Positions 1,973-23,265 of a stretch of DNA of 23,265 bases are shown piece after piece. The DNA is taken from positions 1 to 23,265 of the forward strand of contig JBDIWJ010000030.1 of the NCBI GenBank assembly GCA_039638295.1. The letters run 5' to 3'. The number at the start of each line of letters is the position of its first letter. Positions within the stretch are counted from its first letter, which is position 1. Source of the stretch: Candidatus Phoenicimicrobium oleiphilum (GTDB taxonomy: Bacteria; Atribacterota; Phoenicimicrobiia; Phoenicimicrobiales; Phoenicimicrobiaceae). The translations under genes and the position numbers were made by a program. Below the pieces are notes generated by a model. It worked only from the letters and a program-made list of their open reading frames with translations, made no database searches and had not been told where the DNA came from.

Positions 1973-1973
1973 T

Positions 1974-2099: not shown

Positions 2100-2118
2100 G
2101 TTTAATGAAATATATATT

Positions 2119-2135
2119 TTGGCACAAAAATTGCT
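2119..2135 (+). promoter_or_regulatory. Sigma-54 (-24/-12) promoter
   Basis: TTGGCACAAAAATTGCT matches TGGCAC-N5-TTGC, with GG at 2121-2122 and GC at 2133-2134 exactly 10 nt apart. It is adjacent to a GAFTGA-containing activator gene and about 120 bp upstream of the CoA-transferase start. Confidence 0.92.
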
Positions 2136-2252
2136 TAAAATCATTAAGTAGAATATTTGTCTAAATAAAAAATATTTATCAGCTGTTATTAAAAAGTTTT
2201 TATTTAGGTAGTAGTTTTATTATTTTTTTACAAATAAGAAAAGGAGGTAAGT

Positions 2253-3227: not shown

Positions 3228-3228
3228 G

Positions 3229-4008: not shown

Positions 4009-4018
4009 GAGGAAAAAT

Positions 4019-5254
4019 ATGAAAGAAGTTGATTTAATAAGTGTTGGGATGACTAATTTTGGGAAACACTTTGATAAAACAGGAAGAGACTTACTTATTG
4101 AAGCAGCAAGAGAAGCAATTACCCATGTGGATAAAGGTATAGATATGAAAAGAGATGTAAAAGCTCTTTGTATTGGCTATTTTACTCCAGATTTATTTGA
4201 ACATCAAGGGCATATTGGCGCTTTAAGTGCTGAATGGCTTGGACTCTCAGGGATACCTGCATTCAGAACAGAAAGTGCTTGTGCGTCTTCTTCTGCTGCT
4301 CTTGCTACAGGGTATTTCGCAGTTGCTTCAGGGATGTATGACCTTGTGATGGTTGCTGGAGTAGAAAAGATGACAAATTTAGATACTCCAGGGGTGACTA
4401 ATGCACTTTCCATTGCTGCAGATGATGTGTTTGAACTTACTACCGGCATTACATTTCCTGGCCTTTTTGCATTAATGGCTCAAGAATATTTTGAAAAATA
4501 TAGTGGAAGTTGGGAGGACCTTCAAACTGTTACATTGAAAAATCACCATAATGGTTCTCTTAATTCAAAAGCACAGTTTCAGGCAGAAATTTCTGCTATT
4601 GCTGAAAAGACTGCTATTAAAAAAGGTGTTACCTTTAAGGATGAGATGGATTTCTTAAAATCAAAATATAATCCTTTGGTTGCCTATCCACTGCGTCTTT
4701 TTGATTGCTCTCCAATATCCGATGGTGCTTCTGTTGCATTCCTTACAAGTAGGGAAATCTCAAAGAGATTTACTGATAAACCTCTACATATTATCGGAGT
4801 TGGTCTTGGAACAGATACAATATCACTTTCAGGAAGGCCTGATTTAACTACTTCAAAAGCTACTGAAAATGCTGCAGTTGCAGCTTACAAGATGGCTAGA
4901 ATTACGCCAGAAGATATTGATATAGCAGAGGTACACGACTGCTTCACTATAAACGAGGTAATACTCTCTGAAGACCTTGGATTTTTTAAAAAAGGGGAAG
5001 GTTTGAAAGCAGCACAAGAAGGGAGGACATCTCTTTCTGGTGACAAACCTATTAATACAGATGGAGGTCTTAAAAGCAAAGGGCACCCTGTGGGAGCAAC
5101 AGGTATAGCAATGGTGCACGAAATATGGCTACAGCTTAGAGGAGAAGCAGGTAAAAGACAGGTAAAAGGTAATCCAAAAATTGGGCTTACCTGTAATGTT
5201 GGAGGCTCAAGTGCTAGTGCAATGGTATTTATATTTGAAAGAGGTGAAAAATGA
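4019..5254 (+). CDS. Thiolase, SCP2/archaeal type (acetyl-CoA C-acyltransferase family)
   Basis: Nucleophile motif ESACASS, VAGVEKM, CSPISDGA, EVHDCFT, GHPVGATG, C-terminal NVGG. Start set at ATG 4019 behind AGGAGG (4007-4012), rather than the ORF-track TTG at 3989. Confidence 0.92.
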   Translation: MKEVDLISVGMTNFGKHFDKTGRDLLIEAAREAITHVDKGIDMKRDVKALCIGYFTPDLFEHQGHIGALSAEWLGLSGIPAFRTESACASSSAALATGYFAVASGMYDLVMVAGVEKMTNLDTPGVTNALSIAADDVFELTTGITFPGLFALMAQEYFEKYSGSWEDLQTVTLKNHHNGSLNSKAQFQAEISAIAEKTAIKKGVTFKDEMDFLKSKYNPLVAYPLRLFDCSPISDGASVAFLTSREISKRFTDKPLHIIGVGLGTDTISLSGRPDLTTSKATENAAVAAYKMARITPEDIDIAEVHDCFTINEVILSEDLGFFKKGEGLKAAQEGRTSLSGDKPINTDGGLKSKGHPVGATGIAMVHEIWLQLRGEAGKRQVKGNPKIGLTCNVGGSSASAMVFIFERGEK

Positions 5255-5634
5255 TGCTTACTGTACAGAATTATGTAAATGGTTTAAAAGATAATAAGAT
5301 TTTGGGGACTAAATGCAAAAATTGTGGCAATATAATGATTCCCTTGAAACCTGTTTGTTCCAAATGTGGAAGTTTTGATGTTGAAGAGTTTGAAACAAAA
5401 GGCAAGGGAGTTATAAGGAGTTTTACTGTAATTTATGTGGCACCCGAAAAATTTAAAGATAAAGTTCCTTATGTAGTTGCTATTATTAACCTCGATGAAG
5501 GTGGGGCAATTATGGGTAGATTAACCGGAGTGGACCCAAATAAACCGGAAAATATTAAAGTTGGTACAAAAGTTAAATTTGAGGCTTTGGTAGAAGGTGA
5601 AGAAGTAGTTGTAGTATTTAGAGTTGATAACTAA
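5251..5634 (+). CDS. DUF35-family Zn-ribbon/OB-fold protein (thiolase accessory subunit)
   Basis: CKNCG-x10-CSKCGS zinc ribbon, then an OB fold (GKGVIRSFTVIY, PYVVAIINLDEG, IKVGTKV). ATGA overlap with the thiolase stop. Confidence 0.92.
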   Translation: MMLTVQNYVNGLKDNKILGTKCKNCGNIMIPLKPVCSKCGSFDVEEFETKGKGVIRSFTVIYVAPEKFKDKVPYVVAIINLDEGGAIMGRLTGVDPNKPENIKVGTKVKFEALVEGEEVVVVFRVDN

Positions 5635-6726: not shown

Positions 6727-6755
6727 ATAAAAAAATAAAAAAAGGAGTGATAATT

Positions 6756-8732
6756 ATGTCAGGTATTACTGTTTTTGGAATTTTCTTTGTAATATTTGGG
6801 GTTTTAATGACATTTATAGGATTTGTTACAAAAAAATGGATTGGGAGAAGTAGTGATTTTATAGTTGCAGGTCGTGAAGTAAATTTAATAGTGAATATCC
6901 TTGGGGTTGCTTCCATAGGTTATGCTGGAACTACTTTAGCATTGTCTCCAGCTTTTACTATTATGGGTGGTCTTACTAAAAGTGTCTTTATGTTAGGTGT
7001 TTGCTATGCGTTAGTAGGGATAATTTCTTATGGAATATTTGTAGCCCCAATTGCAAGAAGAAGTGGAGCTCATACACTTCCCGAATGGATGGAAATAAGA
7101 TATGATAACAGGGTTCGTACAATTATCGCTTTAACTGCAATTATGGCAATGATAGGGATTACTGCTAATAACGTTGTATCTATGGCCTACATACTTACTG
7201 GCTTTACTTCGTGGAATTTGCTTTTAACGATTACAATATGCTTTATTATTTTTCTGTCTTTTACGTACCTTGGAGGACTATGGGCAATTACTTTAACAGA
7301 TTTTGTTCAAGGTATTATTTGTGTTTTTGCAGTTCCTTTGTTAATCATAGTTTTGTTAATGAAATATGGAGGTTGGAATTTCGTTGCATCTAATTGGCCT
7401 GGTGGGAATCCTTTACTTTTTGGTATTAGCGGAACCACATTCCCCTGGTTTTCTTTAAGATACCCTAGTGTGTTTGTTGCTTTATTTTTATACGGGATGG
7501 CTCTAGTATGGGGTTCAAACCACTACTGGATAAGATCAAGTTCTGTAAGAAGCGATAGAATTGCAAGAAATTCTTATCTCTGGGCAGCATTAATTCTTTT
7601 TGTTGCAAATGGAATAATTTACCCTATACTTGGTGGTTATGTAGGTGCTGCTTATCCAAGTACATTTGCTCCATTGGGGAAAATTCCACCTGCTGCTAGT
7701 TTTGGAGTTTTTCTTAAGGCTATTTCTCCCGTTTCCGCGGCTTATTTACTTTTAACTACTGTAGCTGCATCTATTTCAACTGCAACCGCAACTCATATTG
7801 CTGGGAGTTCAATGATATTTCGTGATATTTATCAAAGGATATTTAGGCCAAATGCTAAACCAGAAGAAATGGTGACACCATCTCGGGTTATATCTCTAGT
7901 ATTTGGTATTGTTTGTCTTGGATTATGTTTTTTCCCAGGTGGGCCTGTATATCTTTTTGCTTTTGGTTGTGCATGGCTTGCTCCCTCTGCAATAATTGTT
8001 TTTTTAGGTATGTACTGGAAGAGAACTACTAATAAAGGGGCATTTATTGGCGGAATAATTGGAATTTTATTCTTAAGTGTTTGGACAATTCTTGATCTTA
8101 CTAAGCTTTATCCTATGACTGCAAAATTTGGCCATATGGTAATTCCTGGAGTAGTGATTACCTTTGTATTAACAGTTATTGTTAGTCTTTTTGATAAGTC
8201 TAAATATTTTGGAAAGCTGGAAGAAAAAGATAAAATAAAATTAATTGACAAAGATATTAAAGTTTTAGACTGTGTAAGAAAAGGTTATAATACAATGGCT
8301 GAAATTACAGATATATTGGATGTAGATTCTTCAATAAGTAATAAGGTTGTAGGAAAATTGGAAAATGGAGGGTATATAAAAAGATTAGCTAACTGTGGAG
8401 TTGGCTTTTATACCTTTGAATTAACAAGAAAAGGTAAAGAGGTATTTCCTCCTCCCTCTTCTACGAAAGAAGAAAAACTTACCGAAGATAAATTAGACAT
8501 GGTAAGTCTTAAAATATTAAGGTATATCGATACCAATCCAAATTTAGTAGCGAATAAATTAATAGAAATAACTGGTTTAAATCAAATGGCAAATTCTGTA
8601 CTGATTGCTTCATTAATTAGACGGGGGCTTCTTAAAGAAAGTGGAATGTGGAGGAGGATTGTAACAATAACTCAAAAAGGAAAAGAGATGCTTAGGAAAC
8701 ATAGAGAATTGTTGGAGGGAGGAGAAATATAA
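6756..8732 (+). CDS. Sodium:solute symporter (SSS/SLC5) with C-terminal tandem MarR-like winged-helix domains
   Basis: About 13 hydrophobic segments with SSS motifs DFIVAGR, TLPEWMEIRYD, YLGGLWAITLTDFVQG, AASISTA, RDIYQRIFRP, GMYWKRTTNKGA. The last ~165 aa are soluble and carry two wHTH-like repeats. ATG 6756 follows AAGGAG (6742-6747); the ORF-track GTG at 6747 overlaps that RBS. Confidence 0.88.
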   Translation: MSGITVFGIFFVIFGVLMTFIGFVTKKWIGRSSDFIVAGREVNLIVNILGVASIGYAGTTLALSPAFTIMGGLTKSVFMLGVCYALVGIISYGIFVAPIARRSGAHTLPEWMEIRYDNRVRTIIALTAIMAMIGITANNVVSMAYILTGFTSWNLLLTITICFIIFLSFTYLGGLWAITLTDFVQGIICVFAVPLLIIVLLMKYGGWNFVASNWPGGNPLLFGISGTTFPWFSLRYPSVFVALFLYGMALVWGSNHYWIRSSSVRSDRIARNSYLWAALILFVANGIIYPILGGYVGAAYPSTFAPLGKIPPAASFGVFLKAISPVSAAYLLLTTVAASISTATATHIAGSSMIFRDIYQRIFRPNAKPEEMVTPSRVISLVFGIVCLGLCFFPGGPVYLFAFGCAWLAPSAIIVFLGMYWKRTTNKGAFIGGIIGILFLSVWTILDLTKLYPMTAKFGHMVIPGVVITFVLTVIVSLFDKSKYFGKLEEKDKIKLIDKDIKVLDCVRKGYNTMAEITDILDVDSSISNKVVGKLENGGYIKRLANCGVGFYTFELTRKGKEVFPPPSSTKEEKLTEDKLDMVSLKILRYIDTNPNLVANKLIEITGLNQMANSVLIASLIRRGLLKESGMWRRIVTITQKGKEMLRKHRELLEGGEI

Positions 8733-10509: not shown

Positions 10510-12156
10510 TTAAGATTTTAATAAATTTTTTAGCGTTTCTGCTGAGAAGAAATAGTACGGGAATTCTCTAAAAGTATAGACCTTAGATTGTTTCATCTTT
10601 TCATCCTCATCTTCTAACTTTTTGTTTAGCTTACCCTTCAAAGGTCTCATTTTTTCTCCAATAAAATTATTTATAGCTTTAATCTCTTCAGAAATTTCCC
10701 ATTTTTCGATAGGTGAAGAAATTTCCCTAATTTTTTTAATCAATCGGGCTTTTTTCGCTGCCATCTTTCTAATAAGATTTTTTTCTTCTTTGGTTAAAGA
10801 CAATTCATCAACATATCTTTCGGGATTAAATTCCAAATCCCTTATCTTCTTCTTTAGGTCAGATATTTTAGAATTAGGCGCGTCAGAGGAAGATTTAAGA
10901 TGAAGATATAAAGTGCAGGAAACAACCAAAAAGTGAGGAGGTTCCACCTTAAAAAATTCTCTGATAATTTCATCAGTTACCAGGTCATATTTTGCTCCTC
11001 CCAATCCGTGAATGAAAAGGTCAGAAATAAATAGTCGATTGTATAGAGTTAACAAAAGAGCTTTGGGTCTTATCTTTAAGTCCCGTTCTTTGAGGAGGGT
11101 TTTAAATGAAGATAGAGATTTTAAACTGTCTTCTTCTACAAGAAATATTTTCCCATAAGAATTATTATAAAGATAATTTCCTCCTCCCTTTCTTAAAATA
11201 AAAATTTTTCTCCTCTGGTCTTGCTCTCTCCAGATCCAGAAAGGGGCTTCGATAAGGTTTTCTTTAATGGTTAAATTAAGCGAGGGGTGTGCTTGATTTC
11301 TAATTTTAAATAACTTTCTGTATTCATCTAATTTATTATTATAAATTTCAGAAAAGGATTCGATGTTTTTAATAATATGCAAAAAGAAGGAGAGAAATTC
11401 ATCGCTATCGCAAATTTTCGAAAAAGGAATTTCCAGATAGGTTGGATGAATTTCTTGCTCGTAAAGACGGCGAGCTAAGCCAAGAAATTCTCCCAGATTG
11501 GCTTTTGGATAATTTTGGCTACATAGGTGGAAAGAATCTTCCAGACATTGAGAAAATATTTGAAAATTATTTAAAATTTCTTTATTTTCTGATTCTAATA
11601 GTTTAAGCCTATAGGTGGTATCCTGAATAAATTTGGTGGTAACTTCCTGAGGAGGGTAGGGATATTCTTCAAATGGGAGATGGGAAGCAAATTCCGAGGG
11701 GAAGAAATTTATTTTCTTTAATCTTAAATTTCTTTCTGAAGAAAGAGCAGGCAATAAAAAGTTAAGGTCTTTACAGATATCATTGTCCAGAATGATATTT
11801 AATCCTAAACATTTATCCGGCAAAGGAGATTTTAGAAGTTCATTTAAAAATATATTTTTAATCCATACTCCAGGATGAAAAAATACTGGTTGATGGCCAG
11901 TCTGGATAATATATTGGAAAGAGGAATTAATTTTTTCTTCAATATGGGGGTCAAATTTAGAACTAAACTTTAATGCCCTTTGAAGAACTTCTTTTCGGTT
12001 TTTTTCCCTAACTTCCTTGAAAGGCTGGTTAAGAAGTTTAAAGGAATACTGGCTAAAAATTTTCTTATTCTCTTCTAATAGGGAGGGTATCTCTTCTGTT
12101 GAATAAGAGAGTAAAATCTGCCTATTTTGCGGAACTTTAATATTTATTTTTTTCAT
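10510..12156 (-). CDS. Uncharacterised protein, distantly BshC-like (HUP/Rossmann-type ligase fold plus C-terminal coiled coil)
   Basis: 548-aa ORF with GAGGTG RBS. Motifs IIQTGHQPVFFHPGVWIKN, ILDND, EAPFWIW, IRPKALLLTLYNRL, LFIHGLGGAKYD, and a K/E-rich helical C-terminus. The layout parallels BshC (TGQQ motif, SEDHD, coiled coil); the function assignment is inference. Confidence 0.55.
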   Translation of the reverse strand: MKKINIKVPQNRQILLSYSTEEIPSLLEENKKIFSQYSFKLLNQPFKEVREKNRKEVLQRALKFSSKFDPHIEEKINSSFQYIIQTGHQPVFFHPGVWIKNIFLNELLKSPLPDKCLGLNIILDNDICKDLNFLLPALSSERNLRLKKINFFPSEFASHLPFEEYPYPPQEVTTKFIQDTTYRLKLLESENKEILNNFQIFSQCLEDSFHLCSQNYPKANLGEFLGLARRLYEQEIHPTYLEIPFSKICDSDEFLSFFLHIIKNIESFSEIYNNKLDEYRKLFKIRNQAHPSLNLTIKENLIEAPFWIWREQDQRRKIFILRKGGGNYLYNNSYGKIFLVEEDSLKSLSSFKTLLKERDLKIRPKALLLTLYNRLFISDLFIHGLGGAKYDLVTDEIIREFFKVEPPHFLVVSCTLYLHLKSSSDAPNSKISDLKKKIRDLEFNPERYVDELSLTKEEKNLIRKMAAKKARLIKKIREISSPIEKWEISEEIKAINNFIGEKMRPLKGKLNKKLEDEDEKMKQSKVYTFREFPYYFFSAETLKNLLKS

Positions 12157-12179: not shown

Positions 12180-12587
12180 CTAAATATCTATCTCTTTCTT
12201 TTTGACCCACAATCCTGCTCTCTCCAAAACTTTCTGTACACCACCAGGGCTGATTACTTTTTTATTATTGTTTTCTTTTACAATTACTGAAGCTATAGTC
12301 CGGCGTCCCCAATTAGGATTTTTTTTCTTTAGTTCAATTATCCTAAGGGCATATTTTTCTGGGACTCTCCCCGGATTTTTTCTTATACGTTTTTTTGGCT
12401 CTCTTATCCCTCCTATGCCTTGTTCTAAATAGCGAGGATACCATCTACGAAAAGTATTTATAGATATTTTTGCTTTTCTACAAGAGAAACTTATATTATG
12501 TGTCTTTTGATAAGTTTCTATCATTAGTTTTCGCTGGGTAAAAGTGGTAGGTTTAATATATCTTTTGACTTTTCTTTCTTCTTTCAT
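12180..12587 (-). CDS. Helix-turn-helix protein resembling the N-terminal DNA-binding region of IS481/IS3-like transposases; no DDE domain
   Basis: ISFSCRKAKISINTFRRWYPRYLEQGIGGI (HTH 1) and IIELKKKNPNWGRRTIA...ISPGGVQKVLERAGL (HTH 2), then a stop. ATG at 12587 has GAGAGG about 7 nt upstream; the alternative start is 12605. Confidence 0.7.
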   Translation of the reverse strand: MKEERKVKRYIKPTTFTQRKLMIETYQKTHNISFSCRKAKISINTFRRWYPRYLEQGIGGIREPKKRIRKNPGRVPEKYALRIIELKKKNPNWGRRTIASVIVKENNNKKVISPGGVQKVLERAGLWVKKKEIDI

Positions 12588-12697
12588 CTTTTGACCTCTC
12601 ACCATTTATCTTAAGCTTTATTCTGTAAGTAGTCAATATCTGCGTGACCAGATAATAAAAAATATTTATTAAAAAAGAAGGATTTTTGAAATTTATA

Positions 12698-12730: not shown

Positions 12731-12747
12731 TTTCCGTAATATGGAAA
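12731..12747. promoter_or_regulatory. Putative IclR-family operator overlapping the iclR start codon
   Basis: Imperfect palindrome TTTCCGTAATATGGAAA (TTTCC-N7-GGAAA). Its right part AATATGGAAAA recurs as AATATAGAAAA at 12708-12718, 30 bp upstream. Confidence 0.55.
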
Positions 12748-13508
12748 AACAAACGGGCAAAAAAGAGAGAATAAAATCTATAGATAAAGCCTTGGATTTA
12801 TTAGAATTTCTTTCAGTTAATGAGCAAGAAACAGGCATAACTGAAATAAGTAAAAAGTTGCATATGGGGCTAAGTACAGTGCATAGAATAATAACTACCT
12901 TAAAATCTCGCGGGTATGTTATTCAGAATCAACAAACAACGAAGTATAGATTAGGAATTAAGTTATTTGCGCTTGGTTGTGCAGTCCAAAGTACAAAACG
13001 TTTGGTCGAGATAACAAAACCCTATCTTAGACAGTTATCGCAAGTTACTAATGAGACAGCAAATCTAGCAATTTTGGAGGGTAAGGAAGTCATTTATCTT
13101 GATACAATTGAGAGCCCAGAAATTTTGAGGACGGAGATTATGGCAGGGACTAGAACTCCAGCCCATTGTACTGCTTTAGGGAAGGTCTTATTAGCTTTTA
13201 TTTCTGATGGGGAATTTGAAAGTTTATATAAAAATGACGAACCATTAACTTCCCTTACGTCTAATTCAATAGCTTCATTAGAGGAATTAAAAAAACATTT
13301 AAAAAAGGTTAAAGAACAGGGTTATGCGCTTGATAGAGAAGAATATAAAATTGGTATTAATTGTATAGGTGTCCCTATATTTGGTAGAAATGAAGCTATA
13401 GCTGCTATTAGTATCACTGGTCCAGCATCACGTTTTACTTTAGATAAGATGGAAAAAGTTAAGGATGAATTAATAACTATATCTAAAAAAATTTCTAATC
13501 AGTTTTAG
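12741..13508 (+). CDS. IclR-family transcriptional regulator
   Basis: IKSIDKALDLLEFL, HTH GITEISKKLHMGLSTVHRIITTL..RGYV, ETANLAIL, PAHCTALGKVLLA, GYALDREE..GINCIGVPI, AAISITGP. Confidence 0.96.
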   Translation: MEKQTGKKERIKSIDKALDLLEFLSVNEQETGITEISKKLHMGLSTVHRIITTLKSRGYVIQNQQTTKYRLGIKLFALGCAVQSTKRLVEITKPYLRQLSQVTNETANLAILEGKEVIYLDTIESPEILRTEIMAGTRTPAHCTALGKVLLAFISDGEFESLYKNDEPLTSLTSNSIASLEELKKHLKKVKEQGYALDREEYKIGINCIGVPIFGRNEAIAAISITGPASRFTLDKMEKVKDELITISKKISNQF

Positions 13509-13546: not shown

Positions 13547-14401
13547 ATGAATAAAAAGAAGACCCGCTTAGATTTCATAGAAATGAAAAAGAAAGGAGAA
13601 CAAGTAGCTTGGGTAACTGCTTATGATTTTCCCACTGCCTCATTTGTTGAGCAAGCCGGTATGGATATGATCTTAGTCGGTGATTCATTAGGGATGGTAG
13701 TATTAGGTTATCAAGGTACAGTCCCAGTTACTATGGAAAACTGTATCTCTCATTGCCAGGCAGTTCGGAGAGGTGCACCGAATACTTTCTGTATCGGGGA
13801 TATGCCCTTTCTGTCCTATCAGATTTCCGACCAGGAAGCAGTGAGAAATGCAGGACGTTTTTTGAAAGAGGCGGATATGGATGCAGTAAAATTAGAAGGA
13901 GGAAGGAGAGTCTGTAGCAGAATAAAGGCTATAGCTGATGCCGGAATATTAGTTATGGGGCATATTGGTCTTACTCCCCAAAGTTCAGGTCAATTAGGTG
14001 GATTTAAAGCTCAAGGTAGAGATGCTGCTAGTGCACGAGAATTAATTAAGGATGCTTTGGCCATTCAAGAAGCTGGTGCTTATGCCCTCTTGTTAGAAGC
14101 AGTTCCACCAGAATTAACCGTATTTATTACTAAAAAATTGTCTATACCCGTCTACTCTATTGGAGCAGGGGGACCCTGTGATGGCCAGTTATTAATATGT
14201 GGCGATATGTTAGGCCTCTTCCAGGCCTTTACCCCTAAGTTTGTTAAGAAATATGCTAATATCGCCGAAATAGAAACCAATGCCTTTAAGGAATATATCA
14301 AAGATGTAAAGACCGGAGCCTTCCCTACAGATGATCACTGCTATCATATTTTAAAAGGCAAAGAAGAAGAGTTTTATGAGATGCTGAAAGAGTTTGAGTA
14401 A
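13547..14401 (+). CDS. panB: 3-methyl-2-oxobutanoate hydroxymethyltransferase (PanB) family enzyme
   Basis: VTAYDFPTA, LVGDSLGMV, GDMPFLSY, VKLEGG, MGHIGLTPQ, LLEAVP, SIGAG, DGQ, PKFVKKY. Confidence 0.93.
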   Translation: MNKKKTRLDFIEMKKKGEQVAWVTAYDFPTASFVEQAGMDMILVGDSLGMVVLGYQGTVPVTMENCISHCQAVRRGAPNTFCIGDMPFLSYQISDQEAVRNAGRFLKEADMDAVKLEGGRRVCSRIKAIADAGILVMGHIGLTPQSSGQLGGFKAQGRDAASARELIKDALAIQEAGAYALLLEAVPPELTVFITKKLSIPVYSIGAGGPCDGQLLICGDMLGLFQAFTPKFVKKYANIAEIETNAFKEYIKDVKTGAFPTDDHCYHILKGKEEEFYEMLKEFE

Positions 14402-14437: not shown

Positions 14438-15388
14438 ATGAGTAAAACGATAAAAGAAATTAGAGAATTTATGGAGGGGATGGGGATTCCTGGAAGAGAT
14501 TTGGGTGAACTTCCTTCTTCAACAAAAACCTTTCCAGATGGCGCACAATGGAGAATAGAAATTTCGGGGGTCGAGCACCCATCAACTTTTGAAGCAATGA
14601 TTGACGAAGCAAAAAAAAGGAATGTACCCATTCATAGAGCCATAATAACAGTAGCAGGATCAACTTTAAGTGATTTTAGTGAATTGAAGGCTATGGCTCA
14701 AATGGGAAAAGATGAAAAGATAGAGGTTATAGCTACAATGGGTCCACGTAAAGCTTGGGACGTAGGGGCAAAGGCCGCAGCTTTTTCTGAAGGTGCTATG
14801 GTAGGGTTTAGGCTAAGAGGCTCTGATAACATTTCTTATTGGCTGGCAGATATGATGAGAAATATTGAAGCTGGGCTCAGAGGATTTCTGGTGCTTGACG
14901 AAGGAATACTTTCTATTGTGACTCGCATGCGTGAAAAGGGTTTTATACCTAAAGATGTAGTCTTTAAATGGTCTGCATTTGGTGGATACTGCAGTGCTGC
15001 CGGAGCTAAGGTTATTGAGAAGATGGGTGCTAATTCAATTAATCCTACATCAGATGTTTCGCTCCCAATTTTGGCAGGAATGCGAAAAGCGATTAATATA
15101 CCAATAGATATTTATATGTTTATTACAGATGCTGAAGGGGGGATGTTTAGGGTCTATGAAGCTCCGGAAATCGCCAGGGTTACCTCACCTTGTTACTTTA
15201 AAATTGAACCGGGAACTAGCCAGGCTGATATTTATAAACCCTGGGTGAAAGAGAGTTGGCATGCAGAATTTATGAGAGAGAAAGTCAAAGAAGCTGCCAT
15301 TTTTCAAGAGATTATGGAAAGACAAGCACCTAAATTAAAATTATCTAAGAAGGGTCCTTCTGATTTAATTCTCCCAGATCCTAAATAA
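14438..15388 (+). CDS. Uncharacterised TIM-barrel protein (often labelled peptidase U32-like)
   Basis: FPDGAQWRIEISGVE, VPIHR, GPRKAWD, GLRGFLVLDEG, FKWS, GANSINP..D, IPIDIY, EAPEIAR..SPCYFK. Family recognition is from memory, and the Fe-S Cys cluster of UbiU/TrhP-type U32 proteins is not evident. Confidence 0.55.
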   Translation: MSKTIKEIREFMEGMGIPGRDLGELPSSTKTFPDGAQWRIEISGVEHPSTFEAMIDEAKKRNVPIHRAIITVAGSTLSDFSELKAMAQMGKDEKIEVIATMGPRKAWDVGAKAAAFSEGAMVGFRLRGSDNISYWLADMMRNIEAGLRGFLVLDEGILSIVTRMREKGFIPKDVVFKWSAFGGYCSAAGAKVIEKMGANSINPTSDVSLPILAGMRKAINIPIDIYMFITDAEGGMFRVYEAPEIARVTSPCYFKIEPGTSQADIYKPWVKESWHAEFMREKVKEAAIFQEIMERQAPKLKLSKKGPSDLILPDPK

Positions 15389-15424: not shown

Positions 15425-16660
15425 ATGAAAAACGATCCATTTGAAACAGCTTTAAATACCTTGCGCGCTGCAGGGAAAATTGCAGGCTTGGAGCCCAATG
15501 CAATTAAAATTCTTAGTCAACCTAAACGTGTTTTTGAATTTATCATTCCTATGAAAATGGATAATGGTGAACTTAGGATATTTAATGCTTTTAGAGTTCA
15601 TTATAATGATGCCTTAGGAGAAATTAAGGACGGGACAAGATTTGTACCCAATTTAGATTTAAATACTGTAAAAGCTTTAGGATTTTGGATGACCATCAAA
15701 CACGCTGTTGCTGGTATTCCTGCTGGCGGAGGGAAAGGCGGTGTAAGAGTTGATCCTTCTGAGTTAAGTGAATGGGAATTAGAACGCCTTGTTCGTGCTT
15801 TTATTCGCAAGTTACCTATGAAGGGAGCGTGGGTTGATGTGCCAGGAGCAGATATTGGAACTAGTGCAAAAACACAGGCCTGGATGCTTGACGAGTATGA
15901 AGAAATAGTTGGATTTCATAGCCCTGCAGCAATTAATGACAAGCCAGCCGAAGTCAATGGTACTTTAGGTAGTATGGAGGCAACCGGAACTGGTGCATTT
16001 TTTGTTACTAAGGAAGTGGTGAAAGATATAGGATTAGCTAAAAGCCCATCAGTAGTTGTTCAGGGATTTGGAGATGTTGGACGTACTGTGGCGAGATTAC
16101 TTTATAATGATGGGTTTAAAGTCATAGCAGTAAGTGATATTAAAGGCGGGGTACATTCAGAGGAAGGAATTAATATAGAAGAACTTGCAAAATATGTTGA
16201 AGATACCGGATTTGTTGCAGGCTTTCCAGGAACAGTAGAAATAACTAATAAAGAGTTATTAGAAACGAAGTGTGATATTTTAATCCCTGCTGCGGTTCAA
16301 AGTGTTATTACTGATGAAAACGCAGATAAGATAAAAGCACAATTAATCATTGAAGGAGCAAATGGTCCAACTACCCCAGGAGCTGAAAAGATACTCGAAG
16401 AAAAAGGAATTACAATTATTCCTGATGTATTAGCTAACTGTGGTGGTGCTATTGTGTGTAGTTTTGAACGTACTCAAGGGTTAACTGATACTTACTGGGA
16501 TTTAGAAACTGTTAATAAAAAGCTTAAAGAAAGAATTTTAAAAGCCTATAAGGAAACCGTTACAACTGCAAGAGAAAAGAACATCTCCCTTAGAAATGCT
16601 GCCTGGGTTAATGCCTTGACCAAGATAAGCAAGGCAATGAAAGCCAGGGGATGGATATAA
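15425..16660 (+). CDS. Glu/Leu/Phe/Val dehydrogenase family protein; substrate probably not glutamate
   Basis: FRVHYN, MTIKHA, GGGKGG, DVPGADIGT, EATG, VVQGFGDVG, DILIPAA, IEGANGPTT, IIPDVLAN. Several substrate-pocket residues differ from the GDH consensus. Confidence 0.9.
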   Translation: MKNDPFETALNTLRAAGKIAGLEPNAIKILSQPKRVFEFIIPMKMDNGELRIFNAFRVHYNDALGEIKDGTRFVPNLDLNTVKALGFWMTIKHAVAGIPAGGGKGGVRVDPSELSEWELERLVRAFIRKLPMKGAWVDVPGADIGTSAKTQAWMLDEYEEIVGFHSPAAINDKPAEVNGTLGSMEATGTGAFFVTKEVVKDIGLAKSPSVVVQGFGDVGRTVARLLYNDGFKVIAVSDIKGGVHSEEGINIEELAKYVEDTGFVAGFPGTVEITNKELLETKCDILIPAAVQSVITDENADKIKAQLIIEGANGPTTPGAEKILEEKGITIIPDVLANCGGAIVCSFERTQGLTDTYWDLETVNKKLKERILKAYKETVTTAREKNISLRNAAWVNALTKISKAMKARGWI

Positions 16661-16763: not shown

Positions 16764-17291
16764 GTGAAAATATCAAACTTTTTGGCAAAGACAAATATGG
16801 TGTTAGAGAAAATAGAGGAAGTTATCCTCTGTATAGGGGTTAGCGTGCTGGCTATAATTTTAATTGTCAATGTAGTAGCCAGAAAAGCAGGAACCTCGAT
16901 CTATTTTATCGATGAAATAGCTATGTTTTTAGTGATCTGGATAACCTTTATTGGCGTAAGTTATGCCTCGAGGAAGGCAAGGCATATCCGTATGGGGGCA
17001 ATATTTGACTTATCTTCGGTGAGGGTGCAAAAAATCATGATATTTGTAATTTCTACAATCAGTGCTATAGTCATGTTCTACCTGACCTATATTTCTGTTA
17101 ATTACGTATATACTACTTATCGTTGGCAACAAGTGGCCCCAGCTCTAAGAATGCCCTATTGGATTGGTATCGTAGTCGTTCCGGTGGGTTTCTTCCTGGC
17201 CGGAATACATTATGTTCGGACCATTGTGAAGAACATCCAGGTAAAAGAGGAGGTCTGGCTCTCTCCTGAACAAAAGAGCGAATATGAGTGA
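16764..17291 (+). CDS. TRAP transporter small permease (DctQ/TeaB-like)
   Basis: Four TM segments; NVVAR, DEIAMFLVIWITFIGVSYASRKARHIRM, PALRMPYW; GTG start after GAGGG. Confidence 0.92.
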   Translation: MKISNFLAKTNMVLEKIEEVILCIGVSVLAIILIVNVVARKAGTSIYFIDEIAMFLVIWITFIGVSYASRKARHIRMGAIFDLSSVRVQKIMIFVISTISAIVMFYLTYISVNYVYTTYRWQQVAPALRMPYWIGIVVVPVGFFLAGIHYVRTIVKNIQVKEEVWLSPEQKSEYE

Positions 17292-17316: not shown

Positions 17317-18600
17317 ATGTTACAATTGATGGGAGTGGTAGCGTTCACCTTGCTTTTTCTTGGTTTCCCCTTTATGGTGGTACTCCTTGCTACTTTTCTG
17401 TTAGTTAGTTTTTTCTTTTTTCCTGATCTTAATCTAAATATACTAATACAGCAAATATTGAGTGGGATTAAGCCACTTTCTCTGGTTTGTGTGCCTATGT
17501 TTATACTGGCGGCTAATATTATTACTTCCGGACAGGCTGCCAAGAGAATGATAAATATGGTAAAGGCTTTCCTGGGACATCTATTTGGGGGCCTGCCTAT
17601 AGTTACTAATGTTGCCTGTACTTTATTTGGGGCTGTATCTGGCTCCACGCAGGCAACTGTAGCTGCTATAGGGGGGACAATGCGCCCCATGCTCCTCGAG
17701 GCTGGTTATTCCAGCCCTTTTACCCTTGGTTTAATTATTAATTCCAGCGACATTGCTTTTCTTATTCCTCCCAGCATAGGTTTTATTGTATATGGAGTAG
17801 CAACGCAAACTTCTGTTGGAAAATTATTTCTTGCCGGTATTCTTCCCGGATTACTTGTTTGTGCTTTATTCTCAATCTTTTCCTATTTTTACTCCAAATT
17901 TTATAATATTGGGCTTTATCCCAAGGCTAGTTGGAAGGAAAGGAAGCAGGTTACCAAGGAAGGCATCTTGATAATTGGTTTTCCTATATTGATCCTTGGA
18001 GGGATCTATGGGGGGATATTCAGTCCTACGGAAGCAGCTGCTTCTTCTGTACTATATGCTTTAGTCTTAGAGGGACTGGTTTATAAAACATTAACATTTA
18101 AAAAACTCATAGATATTGCCCTGTCTACGGCAGTGGTCACTGCCGTGGTTTTCATATTGGTGGGAGCGGGGCAAGCCATATCCTGGCTTTTAAGTTATTC
18201 TGGAATATACAAACTAATCCTGCCACCTCTTTTTGGGGATGAACCTTCTGTCCTAAAGGTTATTATCATAATTAATATTGCTTATTTCATTGCTTGTATG
18301 TTTGTTGATCCCATTGTCGCTATTTATGTTCTAACTCCACTTTTTGCGCCCTATGTAGCTCAAGCAGGGATTGACAAAGTTTTTCTGGGAGTTTTAGTAA
18401 CAATGCAAGCAGCAATAGGTTCGGCTACTCCACCTTGTGGGTGTGATATTTTCACTGCCATGGTGATCTTTAAAAGACCTTATTTAGAAGTGATAAGGAT
18501 GACCTGGCCTTTTGTGCTTATTTTACTAGTAGCAGTGGCCATAGTAATCACTTTTCCTGAACTGGCTCTTTTTATACCAAGGAGCGCTTTAGGGGGCTAA
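17317..18600 (+). CDS. TRAP transporter large permease (DctM/TeaC-like)
   Basis: LVCVPMFILAANI, GHLFGGL, LFGAVSGSTQATVAAIG, LIPPSIGFIVYG, LFLAGILPG, GGIFSPTEAA, IGSATPP. Confidence 0.95.
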   Translation: MLQLMGVVAFTLLFLGFPFMVVLLATFLLVSFFFFPDLNLNILIQQILSGIKPLSLVCVPMFILAANIITSGQAAKRMINMVKAFLGHLFGGLPIVTNVACTLFGAVSGSTQATVAAIGGTMRPMLLEAGYSSPFTLGLIINSSDIAFLIPPSIGFIVYGVATQTSVGKLFLAGILPGLLVCALFSIFSYFYSKFYNIGLYPKASWKERKQVTKEGILIIGFPILILGGIYGGIFSPTEAAASSVLYALVLEGLVYKTLTFKKLIDIALSTAVVTAVVFILVGAGQAISWLLSYSGIYKLILPPLFGDEPSVLKVIIIINIAYFIACMFVDPIVAIYVLTPLFAPYVAQAGIDKVFLGVLVTMQAAIGSATPPCGCDIFTAMVIFKRPYLEVIRMTWPFVLILLVAVAIVITFPELALFIPRSALGG

Positions 18601-18691
18601 AAGTAAAGGAGATGATGCTTATGTAATGAAAATAAATGAGTAGATATATTTCTTGGATATTAATAAAATTAAACAAAAAGGAGGGATAAAT

Positions 18692-19744
18692 ATGAGAAAT
18701 TTCAGGTTGATTCTAATCTTAGGTTTAGTAATAGTGCTAATAGCTTTTGTCTTCCCCGTATTTGCTCAAGAAAAAACTGAGGTCTACAAATGGAAAATGA
18801 TCTCTGAAGAGGTGACGGGGGATCCCATGACGGTCTTTGCCGAGCGATTTGCTGATCTAGTAGAAAAAAAATCAAATGGGAGAATAGAAATCGAAGTCTT
18901 TCCCTATGGTACTCTTGGAGGAGAGAGGGATATAGTTGAGCTTGTTCAGATGGGAGAGATAGAATTGGGCAGTGTAGACTATGGATGGGTTGGAGGCTTT
19001 GTGCCTCAAGCTCAGGTCTTGGCTTTACAATATCTCTGGCCAAAAGAGAATACCGCTGAAGTTATGCATGAAGTTTGCCAGAATGGTCGGGCTATCCAAC
19101 TACTGGAAGAAGGTTTTAGAAATAGAGGTTTTCAGTTATTAGGTGTATGGAGTTCAGGTTGGATGAGGGTCACCTCTAATGTTCCCATCCATTCTCCGAA
19201 AGATGTTAAAGGACTTAAACACAGGGTAATGGCAAATCCTATCCTGGTAAAGGCTTACAATACCTATGGTTTTAATGCACAAAGCTTAGACTATGGCGAG
19301 ATCTATGGAGCTCTACAGACTGGATTGCTAGATTCACAGGTTCAGCCGATGTATGCCCACTTAAGTATGGGTTTCTATGAAGTTCAAGACTATATTACCA
19401 ACTTGTGGAATGAAGCATTTATGGTCACCCCAGTAGTTAATCGTGAACTTTTTGATAGCATACCTGAAGATCTACAGCAGATACTTATTGACTCCTGTGC
19501 GGAACTTATAGTACCAATGACTAACTGGTCTTTCCGAAACAACGAACTAATAGGGATGAAGATTAGGGAGGCCAAACCCACAATTACAATTTATGAGTTA
19601 AATGACGAAGAGATAGTGCCATTCAAAGAGCTGGCCTGGCAAGAAGGTGGCCCCGTCGATACTTACTTGAAAATTGGTGGTGAGGGCGCTAAGGAGATAC
19701 TTGATGCATTATTAAATGATATTAAGACTGCTCAAAGACAATAA
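18692..19744 (+). CDS. TRAP substrate-binding protein (DctP; TeaA/UehA ectoine-binding-like)
   Basis: Signal peptide MRNFRLILILGLVIVLIAFVFPVFA|QE. WKMISEE..G, FADLVEKKSNG, VFPYGTLG, DIVELVQMG, GLKHRVM, YGEIYGALQTG, FYEVQDY. ATG 18692 follows AGGAGG. Confidence 0.9.
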   Translation: MRNFRLILILGLVIVLIAFVFPVFAQEKTEVYKWKMISEEVTGDPMTVFAERFADLVEKKSNGRIEIEVFPYGTLGGERDIVELVQMGEIELGSVDYGWVGGFVPQAQVLALQYLWPKENTAEVMHEVCQNGRAIQLLEEGFRNRGFQLLGVWSSGWMRVTSNVPIHSPKDVKGLKHRVMANPILVKAYNTYGFNAQSLDYGEIYGALQTGLLDSQVQPMYAHLSMGFYEVQDYITNLWNEAFMVTPVVNRELFDSIPEDLQQILIDSCAELIVPMTNWSFRNNELIGMKIREAKPTITIYELNDEEIVPFKELAWQEGGPVDTYLKIGGEGAKEILDALLNDIKTAQRQ

Positions 19745-19952: not shown

Positions 19953-21122
19953 ATGTTATATTTTTATATTAATGAATATAAAGATAGGATTAAAAAAACA
20001 AAAAAAAGAATGGAAGCAGAAGGTATTGATGTTTTATTTATTTCTCAACCAGCAAATATGAACTACCTTACTGGTTATGATGGATGGAGTTTTTACGTTC
20101 ATCAGGGTGTAATTGTATCATTAGACAAAGAAGAGCCAATTTGGGTCGGTAGAGCTATGGATGCTAACGGAGCTAAAATAACCACGTTTCTTAAAGATGA
20201 AGATATAAGAGGTTACCCTGATGATTATGTTCAATCAAAAACAAAACACCCGATGCAATTTGTTGCAGATATAATCAAGAAAAAAGGATGGGATAATAAG
20301 ACGATTGCCGTTGAAATGGATCAATTTTATTTTACCCATCGTTGTTATTTAGAATTAGAAAAAGCTCTGCCTAAAGCAAAATTTAAAGATGGTAACCTTT
20401 TAGTTAACATGGTAAGGATGATAAAATCTGAAAAAGAAATTGAGTTTATGAAAAGAGCAGGTAAAATTGCTGTAAAAGCAATGCAAGCGGGTATAGATTC
20501 TGTTAATGTCGGAGTAAGGGAATGTGATGCAGCAGCAAATATTTCTTATGCCCAGATAAAGGGTACTGAAGAATATGGTGGAGATTATCCGGCTATAGTG
20601 CCTTTGATGATGGCTGGCGAAGGAACAAGTACCCCTCATTTGACCTGGTCTGATAGAAAGTTTGAGAATAATGAAGCTGTTCTTTTAGAATTGTCTGGAG
20701 TGTATAAACATTATCATGCACCTATTGCAAGGACTATTTATCTTGGTACCCCGCCTAAAATAATGAGAGAGACTGCAGATGTTGTAACAAATGGATTGGC
20801 TAAAACACTGGAATTTATTAAACCAGGAGTTACCTGTGAAGAAGTAGAAGCAAAGTGGAGAGATGCTATTTCCCACTCAACTGTTGTTAAAGAATCACGT
20901 TTGGGGTATTCAATCGGCTTGAACTATCCGCCTGACTGGGGCGAACAAACCATAAGCCTGAGGCCTGGCGATAAAACTATTTTACAGCCAAATATGACCT
21001 TACACCTTATACCAGGCATTTGGTATAAAGAAGTTGGATTTGAAGTAGACGCATCGATAAGGATTACTAAAAAGGGATATGAATCGTTATACGATTTTCC
21101 CATGGAACTTTTTATTAAATAA
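19953..21122 (+). CDS. doeA: Ectoine hydrolase (DoeA/EutD; M24 pita-bread fold, creatinase-like)
   Basis: Subfamily-typical strings PANMNYLTGYDGWSFYVHQ, WVGRAMDANGA, GYPDDYVQS..HPM, GGDYPAIVP, PHLTW, GYSIGLNYPPDWGE. The canonical Xaa-Pro peptidase metal ligands are largely replaced (ELSG, HAP, GYS, HLIPG). Confidence 0.85.
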   Translation: MLYFYINEYKDRIKKTKKRMEAEGIDVLFISQPANMNYLTGYDGWSFYVHQGVIVSLDKEEPIWVGRAMDANGAKITTFLKDEDIRGYPDDYVQSKTKHPMQFVADIIKKKGWDNKTIAVEMDQFYFTHRCYLELEKALPKAKFKDGNLLVNMVRMIKSEKEIEFMKRAGKIAVKAMQAGIDSVNVGVRECDAAANISYAQIKGTEEYGGDYPAIVPLMMAGEGTSTPHLTWSDRKFENNEAVLLELSGVYKHYHAPIARTIYLGTPPKIMRETADVVTNGLAKTLEFIKPGVTCEEVEAKWRDAISHSTVVKESRLGYSIGLNYPPDWGEQTISLRPGDKTILQPNMTLHLIPGIWYKEVGFEVDASIRITKKGYESLYDFPMELFIK

Positions 21123-21160: not shown

Positions 21161-21895
21161 ATGTTGTATAAAGCCAAAAAGGGACAAGCAAGTTATGGTG
21201 AGGCTATAGGAATTCTTTTATTGGATACATCCTTTGCCCCTTATGTTCCAGGTGACGTGGCTAATGCTACTTCTTATTCCTTTCCGGTAAGATTTAAAGT
21301 AGTAAATGGTCTTACTGTCGAAAGGATCTTTAATAAAGAGATTAAATTTTTAGATCGAGTAATTGAAGCTGGTAAGGAATTAATAGAACATGGAGTAAGA
21401 GCAATTACAGGCGATTGTGGATTCATGGCTTTATTCCAAAGAGAAGTGGCCAAACAATTAGAAGTTCCCGTATTTTTATCCAGTCTTCTTCAGTTACCTT
21501 TCCTGACAAGAATAATTGGTGAGGGACAAAAAGTTGGAATAATTACGGCAAATTCAAAGATACTTGATGATACTTTATTAAGAGAAGTGGGCATTAAAGA
21601 TATGAATTCTGTCTATATCAAAGGAGTGGAAGGTAAAGAATATTTTAGAAAAGCAATTATTGAAGAAGTTGGCTGGCTTGATTTCGAGAAGGTGGAAAAA
21701 GAAGTGGTGTCTGCAGCCAAGGAGATGACCAGAGAAGATCCTAAAATAAAAGTTATTTTATTAGAATGCAGCTGTCTGCCTCCCTATGGAGCGGCAGTTC
21801 AAGAGGCAATAAATCTTCCTGTTTTTGATTATATCACTATGATAAACTATGTCTATTCAGCCGTTGTTAAGAAGAATTTCAAAGGTTTTATGTAG
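21161..21895 (+). CDS. Aspartate/glutamate/hydantoin racemase-family protein
   Basis: GEAIGILLLD, PGDVANA.SYSFPV, two catalytic-type Cys motifs ITGDCGF and LLECSCLPPY, PVFLSSL, LPVFD. Confidence 0.85.
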   Translation: MLYKAKKGQASYGEAIGILLLDTSFAPYVPGDVANATSYSFPVRFKVVNGLTVERIFNKEIKFLDRVIEAGKELIEHGVRAITGDCGFMALFQREVAKQLEVPVFLSSLLQLPFLTRIIGEGQKVGIITANSKILDDTLLREVGIKDMNSVYIKGVEGKEYFRKAIIEEVGWLDFEKVEKEVVSAAKEMTREDPKIKVILLECSCLPPYGAAVQEAINLPVFDYITMINYVYSAVVKKNFKGFM

Positions 21896-21942: not shown

Positions 21943-23121
21943 ATGAATATAAAAAAGAAAATAACAAGTCTAAAAGATGAATTAATTGAATTAAGAAGAG
22001 ATTTTCATAAGCATCCCGAGCTGGGATTTAAAGAATATAGGACTGCAGAAATTGTAGCAAATTATCTTGAAAAATGCGGATTGAAGGTAAAAAGAGGTAT
22101 TGCAAGAACAGGTGTTGTTGCTCTGCTTGAGGGAAATGCTCCGGGTCCTACTTTACTTTTACGTGCCGATATGGACGCCTTACCTATTCAAGAAGAAAAT
22201 GAGGTACCGTATAAATCGGTAAATAATGGAGTAATGCACGCTTGTGGTCATGATGCTCACACAGCTATGCTCTTAGTGGCTGCGAAAATTCTTTCTAATT
22301 ATAAGGAGAAAATAAAAGGGAATATTAAATTTGTTTTTCAGCCGAATGAAGAAGTTGGTGGGGCAAAAGTAATGGTAGAAGAAGGAGTTCTTGAAAATCC
22401 TCTGGTAGATGCGGCAATGGCTCTACATTTATGGACCCCGATAGAAAGTGGGAAGATTGGAGTTACAGCTGGTCCTATAACCGCAACTCTTGATGTCTTT
22501 AACCTTAAGATTAAAGGGAAAGGTGGGCATACAGGTTATCCGGAAAACGCAGTGGATCCAATTATTGCCGCTGCAAATATTATTCAGACTATCCAAACTA
22601 TACAGACAAGAGAAATAAGTGCGTTAAAGCCTACTATTATTATGTTTACTAAAATAAAAAGTGGAGTAAAATCTAATATTATACCTGATACAGTTAATTT
22701 AGGAGGGACAATAAGGTATTTTTATAAAGAGGGAGTGAAGGACGAAGAGAAAATAAATAAAAGATTTGAAAGAATAGTAGAAGCTATTTGTAGAGCTTAT
22801 AGAACGAAATATAAATTAAAATTTTATAATGAGAATCAGTCAGTCATTAATAATCTGAATATGACAAAATTAGTGATAACTATAGGTGAAGAATTACTAG
22901 GCAATGGTGACAAAATTATACCGTATGTATCCACTGCCGGTGAAGATTTTTCTGAGTTTGCCAATAAGGTTCCGAGTGTCTTCTATTTTGTTGGGGCTGG
23001 CAATATAGAAAAAGAATCCCATTACCCTCATCATAATCCGCGTTTTAATATCGATGAGGATGTAATGTTAATTGGAGTTGAAATGCATGTTCGCAGCGCA
23101 TTAGAATTTTTTAATAAATAG
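21943..23121 (+). CDS. M20D-family amidohydrolase (N-acyl-amino acid deacylase-like)
   Basis: RRDFHKHPELGFKE, LRADMDALP, MHACGHDAH, FQPNEE, GKGGH, GEDFS, HHNPRF. Confidence 0.93.
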   Translation: MNIKKKITSLKDELIELRRDFHKHPELGFKEYRTAEIVANYLEKCGLKVKRGIARTGVVALLEGNAPGPTLLLRADMDALPIQEENEVPYKSVNNGVMHACGHDAHTAMLLVAAKILSNYKEKIKGNIKFVFQPNEEVGGAKVMVEEGVLENPLVDAAMALHLWTPIESGKIGVTAGPITATLDVFNLKIKGKGGHTGYPENAVDPIIAAANIIQTIQTIQTREISALKPTIIMFTKIKSGVKSNIIPDTVNLGGTIRYFYKEGVKDEEKINKRFERIVEAICRAYRTKYKLKFYNENQSVINNLNMTKLVITIGEELLGNGDKIIPYVSTAGEDFSEFANKVPSVFYFVGAGNIEKESHYPHHNPRFNIDEDVMLIGVEMHVRSALEFFNK

Positions 23122-23184: not shown

Positions 23185-23265
23185 ATGAAATCAGATCTAC
23201 AGATAGCCCAAGAAGCTAAACTAAAACCCATCACCGAAATCGCTGAATCGATCGGAATAAGAGAA
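23185..23265 (+). CDS. fhs: Formate--tetrahydrofolate ligase, N-terminal fragment (runs off the window)
   Basis: AGGAGG RBS, then MKSDLQIAQEAKLKPITEIAESIGIRE, which matches the characteristic Fhs N-terminus (xSDIEIAQxAxxKPIxEIAxxLGI). Only 27 codons are visible and it is not in the ORF track. Confidence 0.85.
   Translation, partial: MKSDLQIAQEAKLKPITEIAESIGIRE

Follow-up and report, generated by a model that had tools for sequence, protein, structure and literature searches.

A PanB-family paralogue in a candidate anaerobic ectoine-type cluster of Candidatus Phoenicimicrobium oleiphilum

Candidatus Phoenicimicrobium oleiphilum carries a panB gene whose product very probably has some catabolic role. 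By its profile scores the protein belongs to the PanB family, yet in its grouping, its substrate pocket and the pathway genes of its genome it does not look like a biosynthetic PanB; the gene cluster around it resembles ectoine catabolism, yet appears to lie outside the known lower pathway. On balance we consider it probable that ectoine is degraded through 2,4-diaminobutyrate (DABA) and 4-amino-2-oxobutanoate to pyruvate, methylene-tetrahydrofolate (methylene-THF) and ammonia, the one-carbon unit finally giving formate and ATP. We infer all of these reactions, and the substrate, from gene identities, conserved linkage, module exchanges, clade membership, pocket changes and the failure to find panC. 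An earlier, sequence-only reading had suggested a catabolic PanB that donates a C1 unit to THF by retro-aldol or retro-Mannich cleavage, and this appears to be the best-supported interpretation. The two substrates named there, 4-hydroxy- and 4-amino-2-oxobutanoate, are those to which the comparative evidence points; ectoine or diaminobutyrate as the upstream substrate, and a partner TIM barrel, go beyond what that reading named.

The panB gene, its neighbours and its clade

The window, by which we mean the whole stretch of 23,265 nucleotides analysed here, belongs to a genome of 1.65 Mb that is 91% complete. The panB gene (13547-14401, forward strand) encodes 284 aa and lies in a run of genes that are co-directional from iclR to fhs and separated by intergenic gaps of 25-208 bp. 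The order is iclR, panB, U316 (a 316-aa uncharacterised TIM barrel), a glutamate dehydrogenase (GDH)-like gene, the TRAP transporter genes dctQMP, a DoeA-like M24 hydrolase gene, a racemase-like gene, an M20 gene and the start of fhs. The sequence-only reading had placed panB first in an IclR-linked run without panC, panD or panE. The linkage stands, as does the absence, none of the three genes being detected by profile searches among the 21 window ORFs scanned; panB itself, however, is second, since iclR (12741-13508, forward strand; PF09339 and PF01614) ends 38 bp before its start. An IclR gene accompanies 29 of 80 PanB-clade loci and 53 of 80 U316 loci. The run contains no MocR-type ORF of the EnuR (MocR/GabR) kind, and IclR is likely to be the local regulator in place of EnuR. 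That the run is shared with a transporter, hydrolases and fhs (formate-tetrahydrofolate ligase) is also borne out, although fhs is represented by its first 27 codons only (23185-23265, forward strand), truncated by the contig end. Of the 27 encoded residues, 26 agree with the Fhs start of the nearest relative locus, L029, in which the cluster recurs at 87-93% nucleotide identity. The remainder of fhs was not found in the assembly of the window's genome; FolD-like and FchA-like genes lie on other contigs.

Several other features of the window were noted. An ORF of 548 aa without Pfam or NCBIfam match (10510-12156, reverse strand) also precedes the cluster in L029. A 141-aa helix-turn-helix protein resembling the N-terminus of IS481/IS630 transposases (12180-12605, reverse strand) is encoded upstream of iclR in several Atribacterota loci. 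A 661-aa sodium:solute symporter with C-terminal winged-helix/MarR-like domains (6747-8732) adjoins a cyclase-family gene and an isopropylmalate/homocitrate-synthase-like gene, and positions 91-5634 hold AtoS/AtoC-like two-component genes followed by CoA-transferase A/B, an archaeal-type thiolase and a ChsH2-like OB-fold partner. Promoter and terminator scans gave counts at chance level (34 against 35.2 +/- 5.6 and 11 against 8.4 +/- 3.4) and were not used. Contigs from three RNA runs were rejected as evidence of transcription, as they cover 28-30 of 30 bins and extend over the stretch upstream of the cluster as well.

The PanB protein scores above the cut-offs of TIGR00222 (325.6 bits, cut-off 207.55), NF001452 (351.4, cut-off 272) and PF02548 (359.5, cut-off 28.7) in profile searches and shares approximately 40% identity with E. 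coli PanB. The E. coli residues D45, S46, D84, K112, E114, H136, E181 and D217, which we take to be the metal-binding, keto-acid-binding and catalytic positions, are all retained, as D46, S47, D85, K115, E117, H139, E184 and D220. Intact catalytic motifs had been claimed from the sequence, and 8 of 8 E. coli-equivalent positions agree. In family score and in binding and catalytic positions the protein is thus like KPHMT (EC 2.1.2.11; PF02548, TIGR00222; PDB 1m3u, 1oy0). Unlike KPHMT, it falls in a separate clade, has no panC or panD beside it in 80 loci, and is proposed to run the reverse reaction on an unbranched substrate.

In a FastTree phylogeny of 128 rows, the window PanB lies in a 93-row clade with support of 100. 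An IQ-TREE analysis of 39 of the 128 rows, in which near-duplicates were dropped and 12 of the 93 clade rows kept, recovered the clade with support of 100/100 and apart from the panC-linked rows, a thin reference sample of six. The segment LLICGD (14189-14206, forward strand; residues 215-220, equivalent to E. coli I212-D217) serves as a marker of the clade: (I/M)(C/S)GD after DGQxx occurs in 90 of 93 clade rows and in 0 of 35 others, the Desulfobacterota clade members mostly reading LMICSD. The sequence-only reading was right about the presence of LLICGD after DGQ but not about VLVxHD as the usual form. Four of six panC-linked PanBs read xQD, so that xHD as a strict rule for the biosynthetic norm was rejected.

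Between E. coli PanB and the window PanB the substitutions V152A, V179L, I200Y, G201S, I212L, V214I and H216G were noted. The branched-substrate pocket of the E. coli enzyme, V179, I202, I212 and V214, corresponds to L182, I205, L215 and I217 in the window protein and is not preserved as such. Smaller residues in E. coli KPHMT (I202A, I212A, V214G) gave a wider substrate range (PMC7610986; PMC7611260). V179L and V214I, by adding bulk at or near range-widening positions, would suit an unbranched substrate that lacks the two methyls.

The 80 PanB-clade loci are the best 80 of 568 genomic matches, at 70-94% identity, and 59 of them are at least 10 kb long; these best 80 come from Atribacterota, Synergistota, Bacillota and Calditrichota, the nearest named ones being mostly Atribacterota. 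IlvD is found in 7 of the loci, an aminotransferase in 16, MttB in 3, a 421-aa barrel in 5, PanE in 3, Fhs in 10 and FolD in 5, with panC and panD each in 0 of 80. Since the clade is present in many other contexts, it does not appear to be ectoine-specific. In L103 and L104, two or three PanB paralogues stand in tandem, together with genes for PanE, IlvD and a TRAP transporter.

Ectoine-like upper genes and exchangeable lower modules

The upper genes, all on the forward strand, look like those of ectoine catabolism, their nearest solved relatives being ectoine proteins. The TRAP binding protein (18653-19744) is nearest to TeaA and UehA: its best PDB matches are 3gyy/2vpn (E 1e-44) and 3fxb, and 2vpn and 3fxb are these two ectoine binders (PMC5924519). 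The small permease DctQ (16764-17291; PF04290) and the large permease DctM (17317-18600; TIGR00786 above cut-off) complete the transporter. Residues E9, E121, R144, M146, W167, N184, W188 and F209 presumably have ligand-pocket roles in TeaA; the window protein keeps E9, R144, M146 and F209 and carries E121S, W167Y, N184Q and W188A. Among 68 binding proteins of DoeA-bearing loci, W167Y and W188A are seen in 64, and the TeaA-like W167/N184/W188 is kept in 4. Given this changed pocket, the imported compound may be other than ectoine itself.

The putative DoeA/EutD-like ectoine hydrolase of M24 fold (19953-21122) has DoeA (6twk) as its best PDB match at E 2e-109, the next family, the prolidases, following at 2e-32; its score against TIGR02993 is 475.9 bits, below the cut-off of 613. 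The M20 amidohydrolase (21943-23121), a proposed N-acetyl-diaminobutyrate deacetylase, passes the cut-off of TIGR01891 and reaches 279 bits against the DoeB2 model NF038260, below the cut-off of 550; profile searches gave no EutE match among the window ORFs. The gene at 21161-21895 encodes an Asp/Glu/hydantoin racemase-like protein of the PRK07475 family, as judged by profile matches.

The GDH-like amino-acid dehydrogenase (15425-16660; PF02812/PF00208) has an altered side-chain pocket. We assume that the distal-carboxylate pocket of GDH consists of the KGG motif, an Arg and the Ser of the VSYFE motif. Canonical-type GDH rows keep the G, R and S in 24 of 24 cases; the window protein and 51 subfamily rows have K[DN]G and Cys345, with Ser/Ala183 replacing Arg, so that the distal-carboxylate pocket of glutamate dehydrogenase is absent from the window enzyme. 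Two ordinary GDH-type genes are found elsewhere in the window's genome. We propose that the GDH-like enzyme is a diaminobutyrate 2-dehydrogenase.

The core of PanB, U316 and DoeA occurs on 68 distinct contigs after deduplication of 261 pooled loci (Bacillota 27, Thermodesulfobacteriota 26, Atribacterota 3, Synergistota 2, Myxococcota 1, unassigned 9), these counts coming from loci biased to relatives of the queries and from non-independent genomes that are mostly incomplete MAGs. A GDH-like gene is present on 46 of these contigs and a class I/II aminotransferase on 18, with both on none; the racemase-like gene is on 51, an EutB-like dehydratase on 13 and RidA on 11. Fhs adjoins on only 6 and FolD on only 2, which counts against the proposed route. 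A search with U316 yielded a similar picture in 80 loci, mostly from Desulfobacterota, of which 55 contain PanB. The recurring order is IclR-PanB-U316-X-DoeA-racemase-M20-TRAP, where X is GDH-like in 28 of the 80 loci, a class I/II aminotransferase in 32 and both in none. As dehydrogenase and aminotransferase replace each other, both would be expected to remove the alpha-amino group. Where EutB-like and RidA genes occur, dehydration of 3-hydroxy-DABA would yield the same keto acid. Four U316 cassettes from Desulfobacterota (L297, L307, L330 and L315) add MttB methyltransferases, three of them with extra DoeA copies, which hints at methylated ectoine-like substrates.

In the known route, ectoine is converted to N-alpha-acetyl-DABA, DABA and, through Atf and Ssd, aspartate (PMC8739950); the aerobic clusters are uehABC-eutABCDE-ssd-atf in Ruegeria pomeroyi and doeABCD in Halomonas elongata (PMC5924519, PMC8739950). 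The cluster studied here resembles these in having a TRAP transporter nearest to TeaA/UehA, a putative EutD/DoeA-type hydrolase, a proposed deacetylase and, in some copies, the EutB-like dehydratase. It is unlike them in that DABA 4-transaminase (Atf/DoeD), Ssd/DoeC and EutC were found on 0 of the 68 core contigs, and in that IclR stands for EnuR and an M20 enzyme for EutE. Furthermore, the attack on DABA would apparently take place at C2 and yield pyruvate and a C1 unit, where the known route leads to aspartate. Elsewhere in the window's genome, class III aminotransferases reach only about 25% identity and no Ssd match was obtained with the query used. A classical C4 route to aspartate within the cassette was rejected, as its genes were not found on the 68 contigs.

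Further evidence comes from the GDH-like subfamily, of which a search with the window gene recovered 53 loci, with identities down to about 61%. Among these loci are DoeA in 29, M20 in 42, DctP in 30, U316 in 35 and PanB in 28, all 28 with U316. Eleven loci carry a three-subunit 2-oxoacid:ferredoxin oxidoreductase, eight of them together with a beta-alanyl-CoA ammonia-lyase-like gene of hot-dog fold; the oxidoreductase is found with U316 or PanB in 0 of the 53. At the genome level, 35 of 50 genomes searched among those with GDH-like loci contain U316, and 32 of the 35 have a PanB of at least 68% identity (one a contig-end fragment), leaving three U316 genomes without a close PanB; none of the 15 U316-less genomes has a PanB above 59%. 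The lyase of locus L220 is near-identical (E 1e-83) to PDB 4mtu, which we take to be the beta-alanyl-CoA ammonia-lyase of Clostridium/Anaerotignum propionicum, and the gene belongs to a different lower module that adjoins the same set of upper genes. The lyase was not found in the window's genome. It counts against this line of evidence that the lyase is multicopy in genomes with the oxidoreductase module (5 matches in G131) and that the copy of locus L228 scores above the cut-off for 3-aminobutyryl-CoA lyase.

Beta-alanyl-CoA is precisely what 4-amino-2-oxobutanoate would yield on oxidative decarboxylation, which suggests a shared intermediate. The oxidoreductase and lyase need 4-amino-2-oxobutanoate; PanB and U316, which stand in their place in other loci, would most likely act on this keto acid too, and we regard it as most likely the intermediate common to both lower modules. 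Cultured carriers are known for the PanB module (L178, L179, L180 and L271, the last from Desulfosarcina widdelii) and for the oxidoreductase module (L220); Alkaliphilus peptidifermentans DSM 18978 is among the cluster carriers.

The alternative cassette (L220:6758-18995; also L209, L219, L223, L225 and L228) comprises the lyase-like, oxidoreductase, GDH-like, M20, DoeA and TRAP genes and is a candidate for converting ectoine or DABA to acryloyl-CoA in Anaerotignum and in clostridia of the gut. Locus L220 also has EutA-like and EctA-like genes, which score below cut-offs. In G131, the lyase copies L334, L337 and L339 adjoin a CoA-transferase, a hydantoinase/carbamoylase-family amidase and further genes that may supply beta-alanine. 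Two further loci, L204 and L212, combine GDH-like, M20, alanine/glycine symporter and alanine-racemase-like genes without DoeA, and perhaps use DABA or N-acetyl-DABA directly.

It is somewhat unlikely, in our judgement, that the C1-donating PanB is catabolic but fed by another upstream compound, namely some other cyclic or N-acylated amino acid, from which a different 2-oxo acid, 4-substituted or 3-branched, would arise. The binding-protein pocket changed in 64 of 68 cases, the DoeA and DoeB2 scores below cut-off, the racemase-like gene, for which the known ectoine route offers no step, and the many other contexts of the PanB clade would all agree with such a compound. Yet four cassettes with the same core, including that of Desulfosarcina widdelii, have a TeaA-like pocket, the beta-alanyl-CoA lyase module is compatible only with a C4 skeleton that bears a 4-amino group, and DoeA relatives with 57-74% identity adjoin EutB and EutC genes.

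The proposed route and the U316 barrel

In the route that we propose, the run would serve the anaerobic catabolism of ectoine or of a closely related compound. The TRAP transporter would import the substrate, the DoeA-like hydrolase would open the ring to give N-acetyl-DABA, and the M20 enzyme would remove acetate to give DABA. The GDH-like enzyme would then remove the 2-amino group of DABA, where the known route removes the 4-amino group, yielding 4-amino-2-oxobutanoate and NH3. PanB, acting in reverse, would cleave the C3-C4 bond and transfer the C1 unit onto tetrahydrofolate, with pyruvate, 5,10-methylene-THF and NH3 as products, and FolD/Fhs would oxidise the C1 unit to formate with a gain of ATP. 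Catabolic transfer of hydroxymethyl or aminomethyl groups to THF, feeding FolD/Fhs, is carried out by serine hydroxymethyltransferase and by the glycine-cleavage T protein, which are PLP- or lipoyl-dependent; unlike these, PanB is proposed to act as a metal-enolate TIM barrel on a 2-oxo acid. Reverse C1 transfer from ketopantoate to THF by PanB has been named as a possibility (PMC7073904).

U316 (14438-15388, forward strand) has no match in Pfam or NCBIfam and no sequence match in the PDB, and at least 2338 homologues were found. Its predicted structure is a confident TIM barrel (pLDDT 89.8). The best structural match (Z 15.5, rmsd 3.0 over 197 residues, 11% identity) is tied with several unrelated barrels, and the match to the U32 structure 5d88 (Z 14.8, rmsd 3.0, 184 aligned) is tied with CutC and class II aldolases. 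Foldseek places class II aldolases nearest (E 1e-8, 13% identity), a fold likeness that is generic. Invariant residues are R39, E41, E96, D154, K177, D224, K255 and E257, with no invariant cysteine. PF01136 is found on 17-23% of members of U316 atlas clusters; assignment of U316 as a U32 peptidase was rejected, as the window protein has neither a PF01136 match nor an invariant cysteine.

We propose that U316 is an ammonia-lyase/hydratase or catalyses a partner step for 4-amino-2-oxobutanoate. This amino-keto acid can lose ammonia to form a reactive enone, and such reactivity would be a reason for an adapter enzyme. A tentative version of the route is that U316 first converts the amino-keto acid to 4-hydroxy-2-oxobutanoate, which PanB then cleaves by a retro-aldol reaction; that PanB takes 4-amino-2-oxobutanoate directly, by a retro-Mannich reaction, seems a more doubtful one. 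Because the PanB clade also lies beside IlvD-type dehydratases, aminotransferases, MttB and the 421-aa protein, 4-hydroxy-2-oxobutanoate is favoured as the common substrate of the clade, with U316 as a putative DABA-specific adapter. U316 and IlvD occur together in 6 of the 80 U316 loci, and the role proposed for U316 does not account for IlvD.

It is improbable that PanB instead runs forwards as a scavenger or sink, with an aldolase-like U316 cleaving the keto acid and PanB capturing formaldehyde or reactive by-products, or recycling methylene-THF onto a 2-oxo acid, and so not providing the main cleavage. The Foldseek matches of U316 to class II aldolases would fit, as would the ability of KPHMT to act as a THF-independent aldolase (PMC7610986) and the 25 of 80 U316 loci, many of them short, without a nearby panB; for these 25 loci, 7 genomes have no PanB match of at least 61% beyond a short fragment. 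The fold matches of U316 are, however, generic, and loci L061 and L077 pair PanB with Fhs/FolD and an aminotransferase in the absence of U316, which suits PanB as a C1 donor.

Pantothenate synthesis and the wider meaning of the clade

A genome search found no second panB in the window's genome. The sequence-only reading had advised looking for a copy near panC; there is a single panB only. PanC, PanD (PF02261) and the archaeal pantothenate synthetase PPS (PF02006) were not found in this genome, which is 91% complete and thus shows no pantothenate ligase (PanC or PPS); it does contain a type III pantothenate kinase and one PanE-family gene. That reading was to be given up if the protein grouped with biosynthetic PanB in a genome with complete pantothenate synthesis; PanC, PanD and the archaeal-type synthetase were not found, and the protein stands apart from panC-linked PanB. 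None of 41 genomes of the order, among them 23 that are at least 90% complete, yielded PanC (PF02569); PanB is present in 17 of the 41, and in only 6 of 24 other genomes of the same family.

Among 50 searched genomes of PanB-clade carriers, PanC is above cut-off in 12. Many of the 50 have more than one PanB, with a maximum of 8 matches in G087, and five clade carriers (G061, G065, G066, G071 and G084) hold a separate, different panB beside panC. Conversely, the carrier G055 has panC and panD, yet the clade PanB only. This genome calls for caution; together with the PanE-family gene of the window's genome, it leaves some probability that the clade makes ketopantoate. In G087, two of the eight PanB-family copies, at loci L100 and L106, adjoin MttB methyltransferases, and panC lacks an adjacent panB. 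A second PanB lineage occurs in relatives without panC (L170:3879-7029; L017-L024), in the order PanE-PanB and sometimes followed by a class III aminotransferase. It forms its own 9-row clade in the FastTree phylogeny and possibly serves pantoate or pantothenate breakdown.

We consider it very unlikely that the window protein is an ordinary biosynthetic PanB, placed in the run by chance and making ketopantoate or, with the PanE-family gene on another contig, pantoate for another ligase or for cross-feeding: it passes TIGR00222, is the sole panB of its 91% complete genome and has the counterpart in G055, but PanC was found in none of the 41 genomes of the order, the distribution within the family is patchy, the order PanB-U316-deaminating enzyme is kept across phyla, and the clade and pocket are distinct.

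In the literature searched, which largely leaves subscription journals uncovered, we found no paper that describes PanB in a catabolic role, a dehydrogenase acting on DABA or the breakdown of ectoine by anaerobes. EutD homologues in untested clusters without eutE and ssd have been described from Thermodesulfobacteriota and Bacillota (PMC13188858 and a preprint), and those of PMC13188858 share this feature with the window cassette. The main text of PMC13188858 contains no mention of panB, hydroxymethyltransferase, glutamate dehydrogenase, Atribacter- or anaerob-; its figures and supplements may show the genes as grey ORFs.

Ectoine is an abundant osmolyte, and its described breakdown, in the literature examined, is the aspartate route of Proteobacteria. 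The cluster offers a complete candidate route for saline sediments, soda lakes, oil fields and digesters. In broader terms, we would give even chances to the view that at least four phyla of anaerobes break down ectoine and hydroxyectoine along a hitherto undescribed route, with a new DABA 2-dehydrogenase or transaminase, a new TIM-barrel family and a dedicated catabolic PanB clade that converts C4 2-oxo acids to pyruvate and folate-bound C1 units, with ATP gained via Fhs. A second branch would proceed via beta-alanyl-CoA, and the PanB clade would perhaps be a general outlet for C4 keto acids derived from homoserine, tetronate and betaine. If this is true, automatic 'panB' calls in many anaerobes do not signify vitamin B5 synthesis, three enzyme activities would be added, and a family of more than 2,300 unannotated proteins would gain a function. 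It would also provide a natural enzyme linking pyruvate and methylene-THF with 4-hydroxy-2-oxobutanoate, which would be relevant to synthetic one-carbon metabolism.
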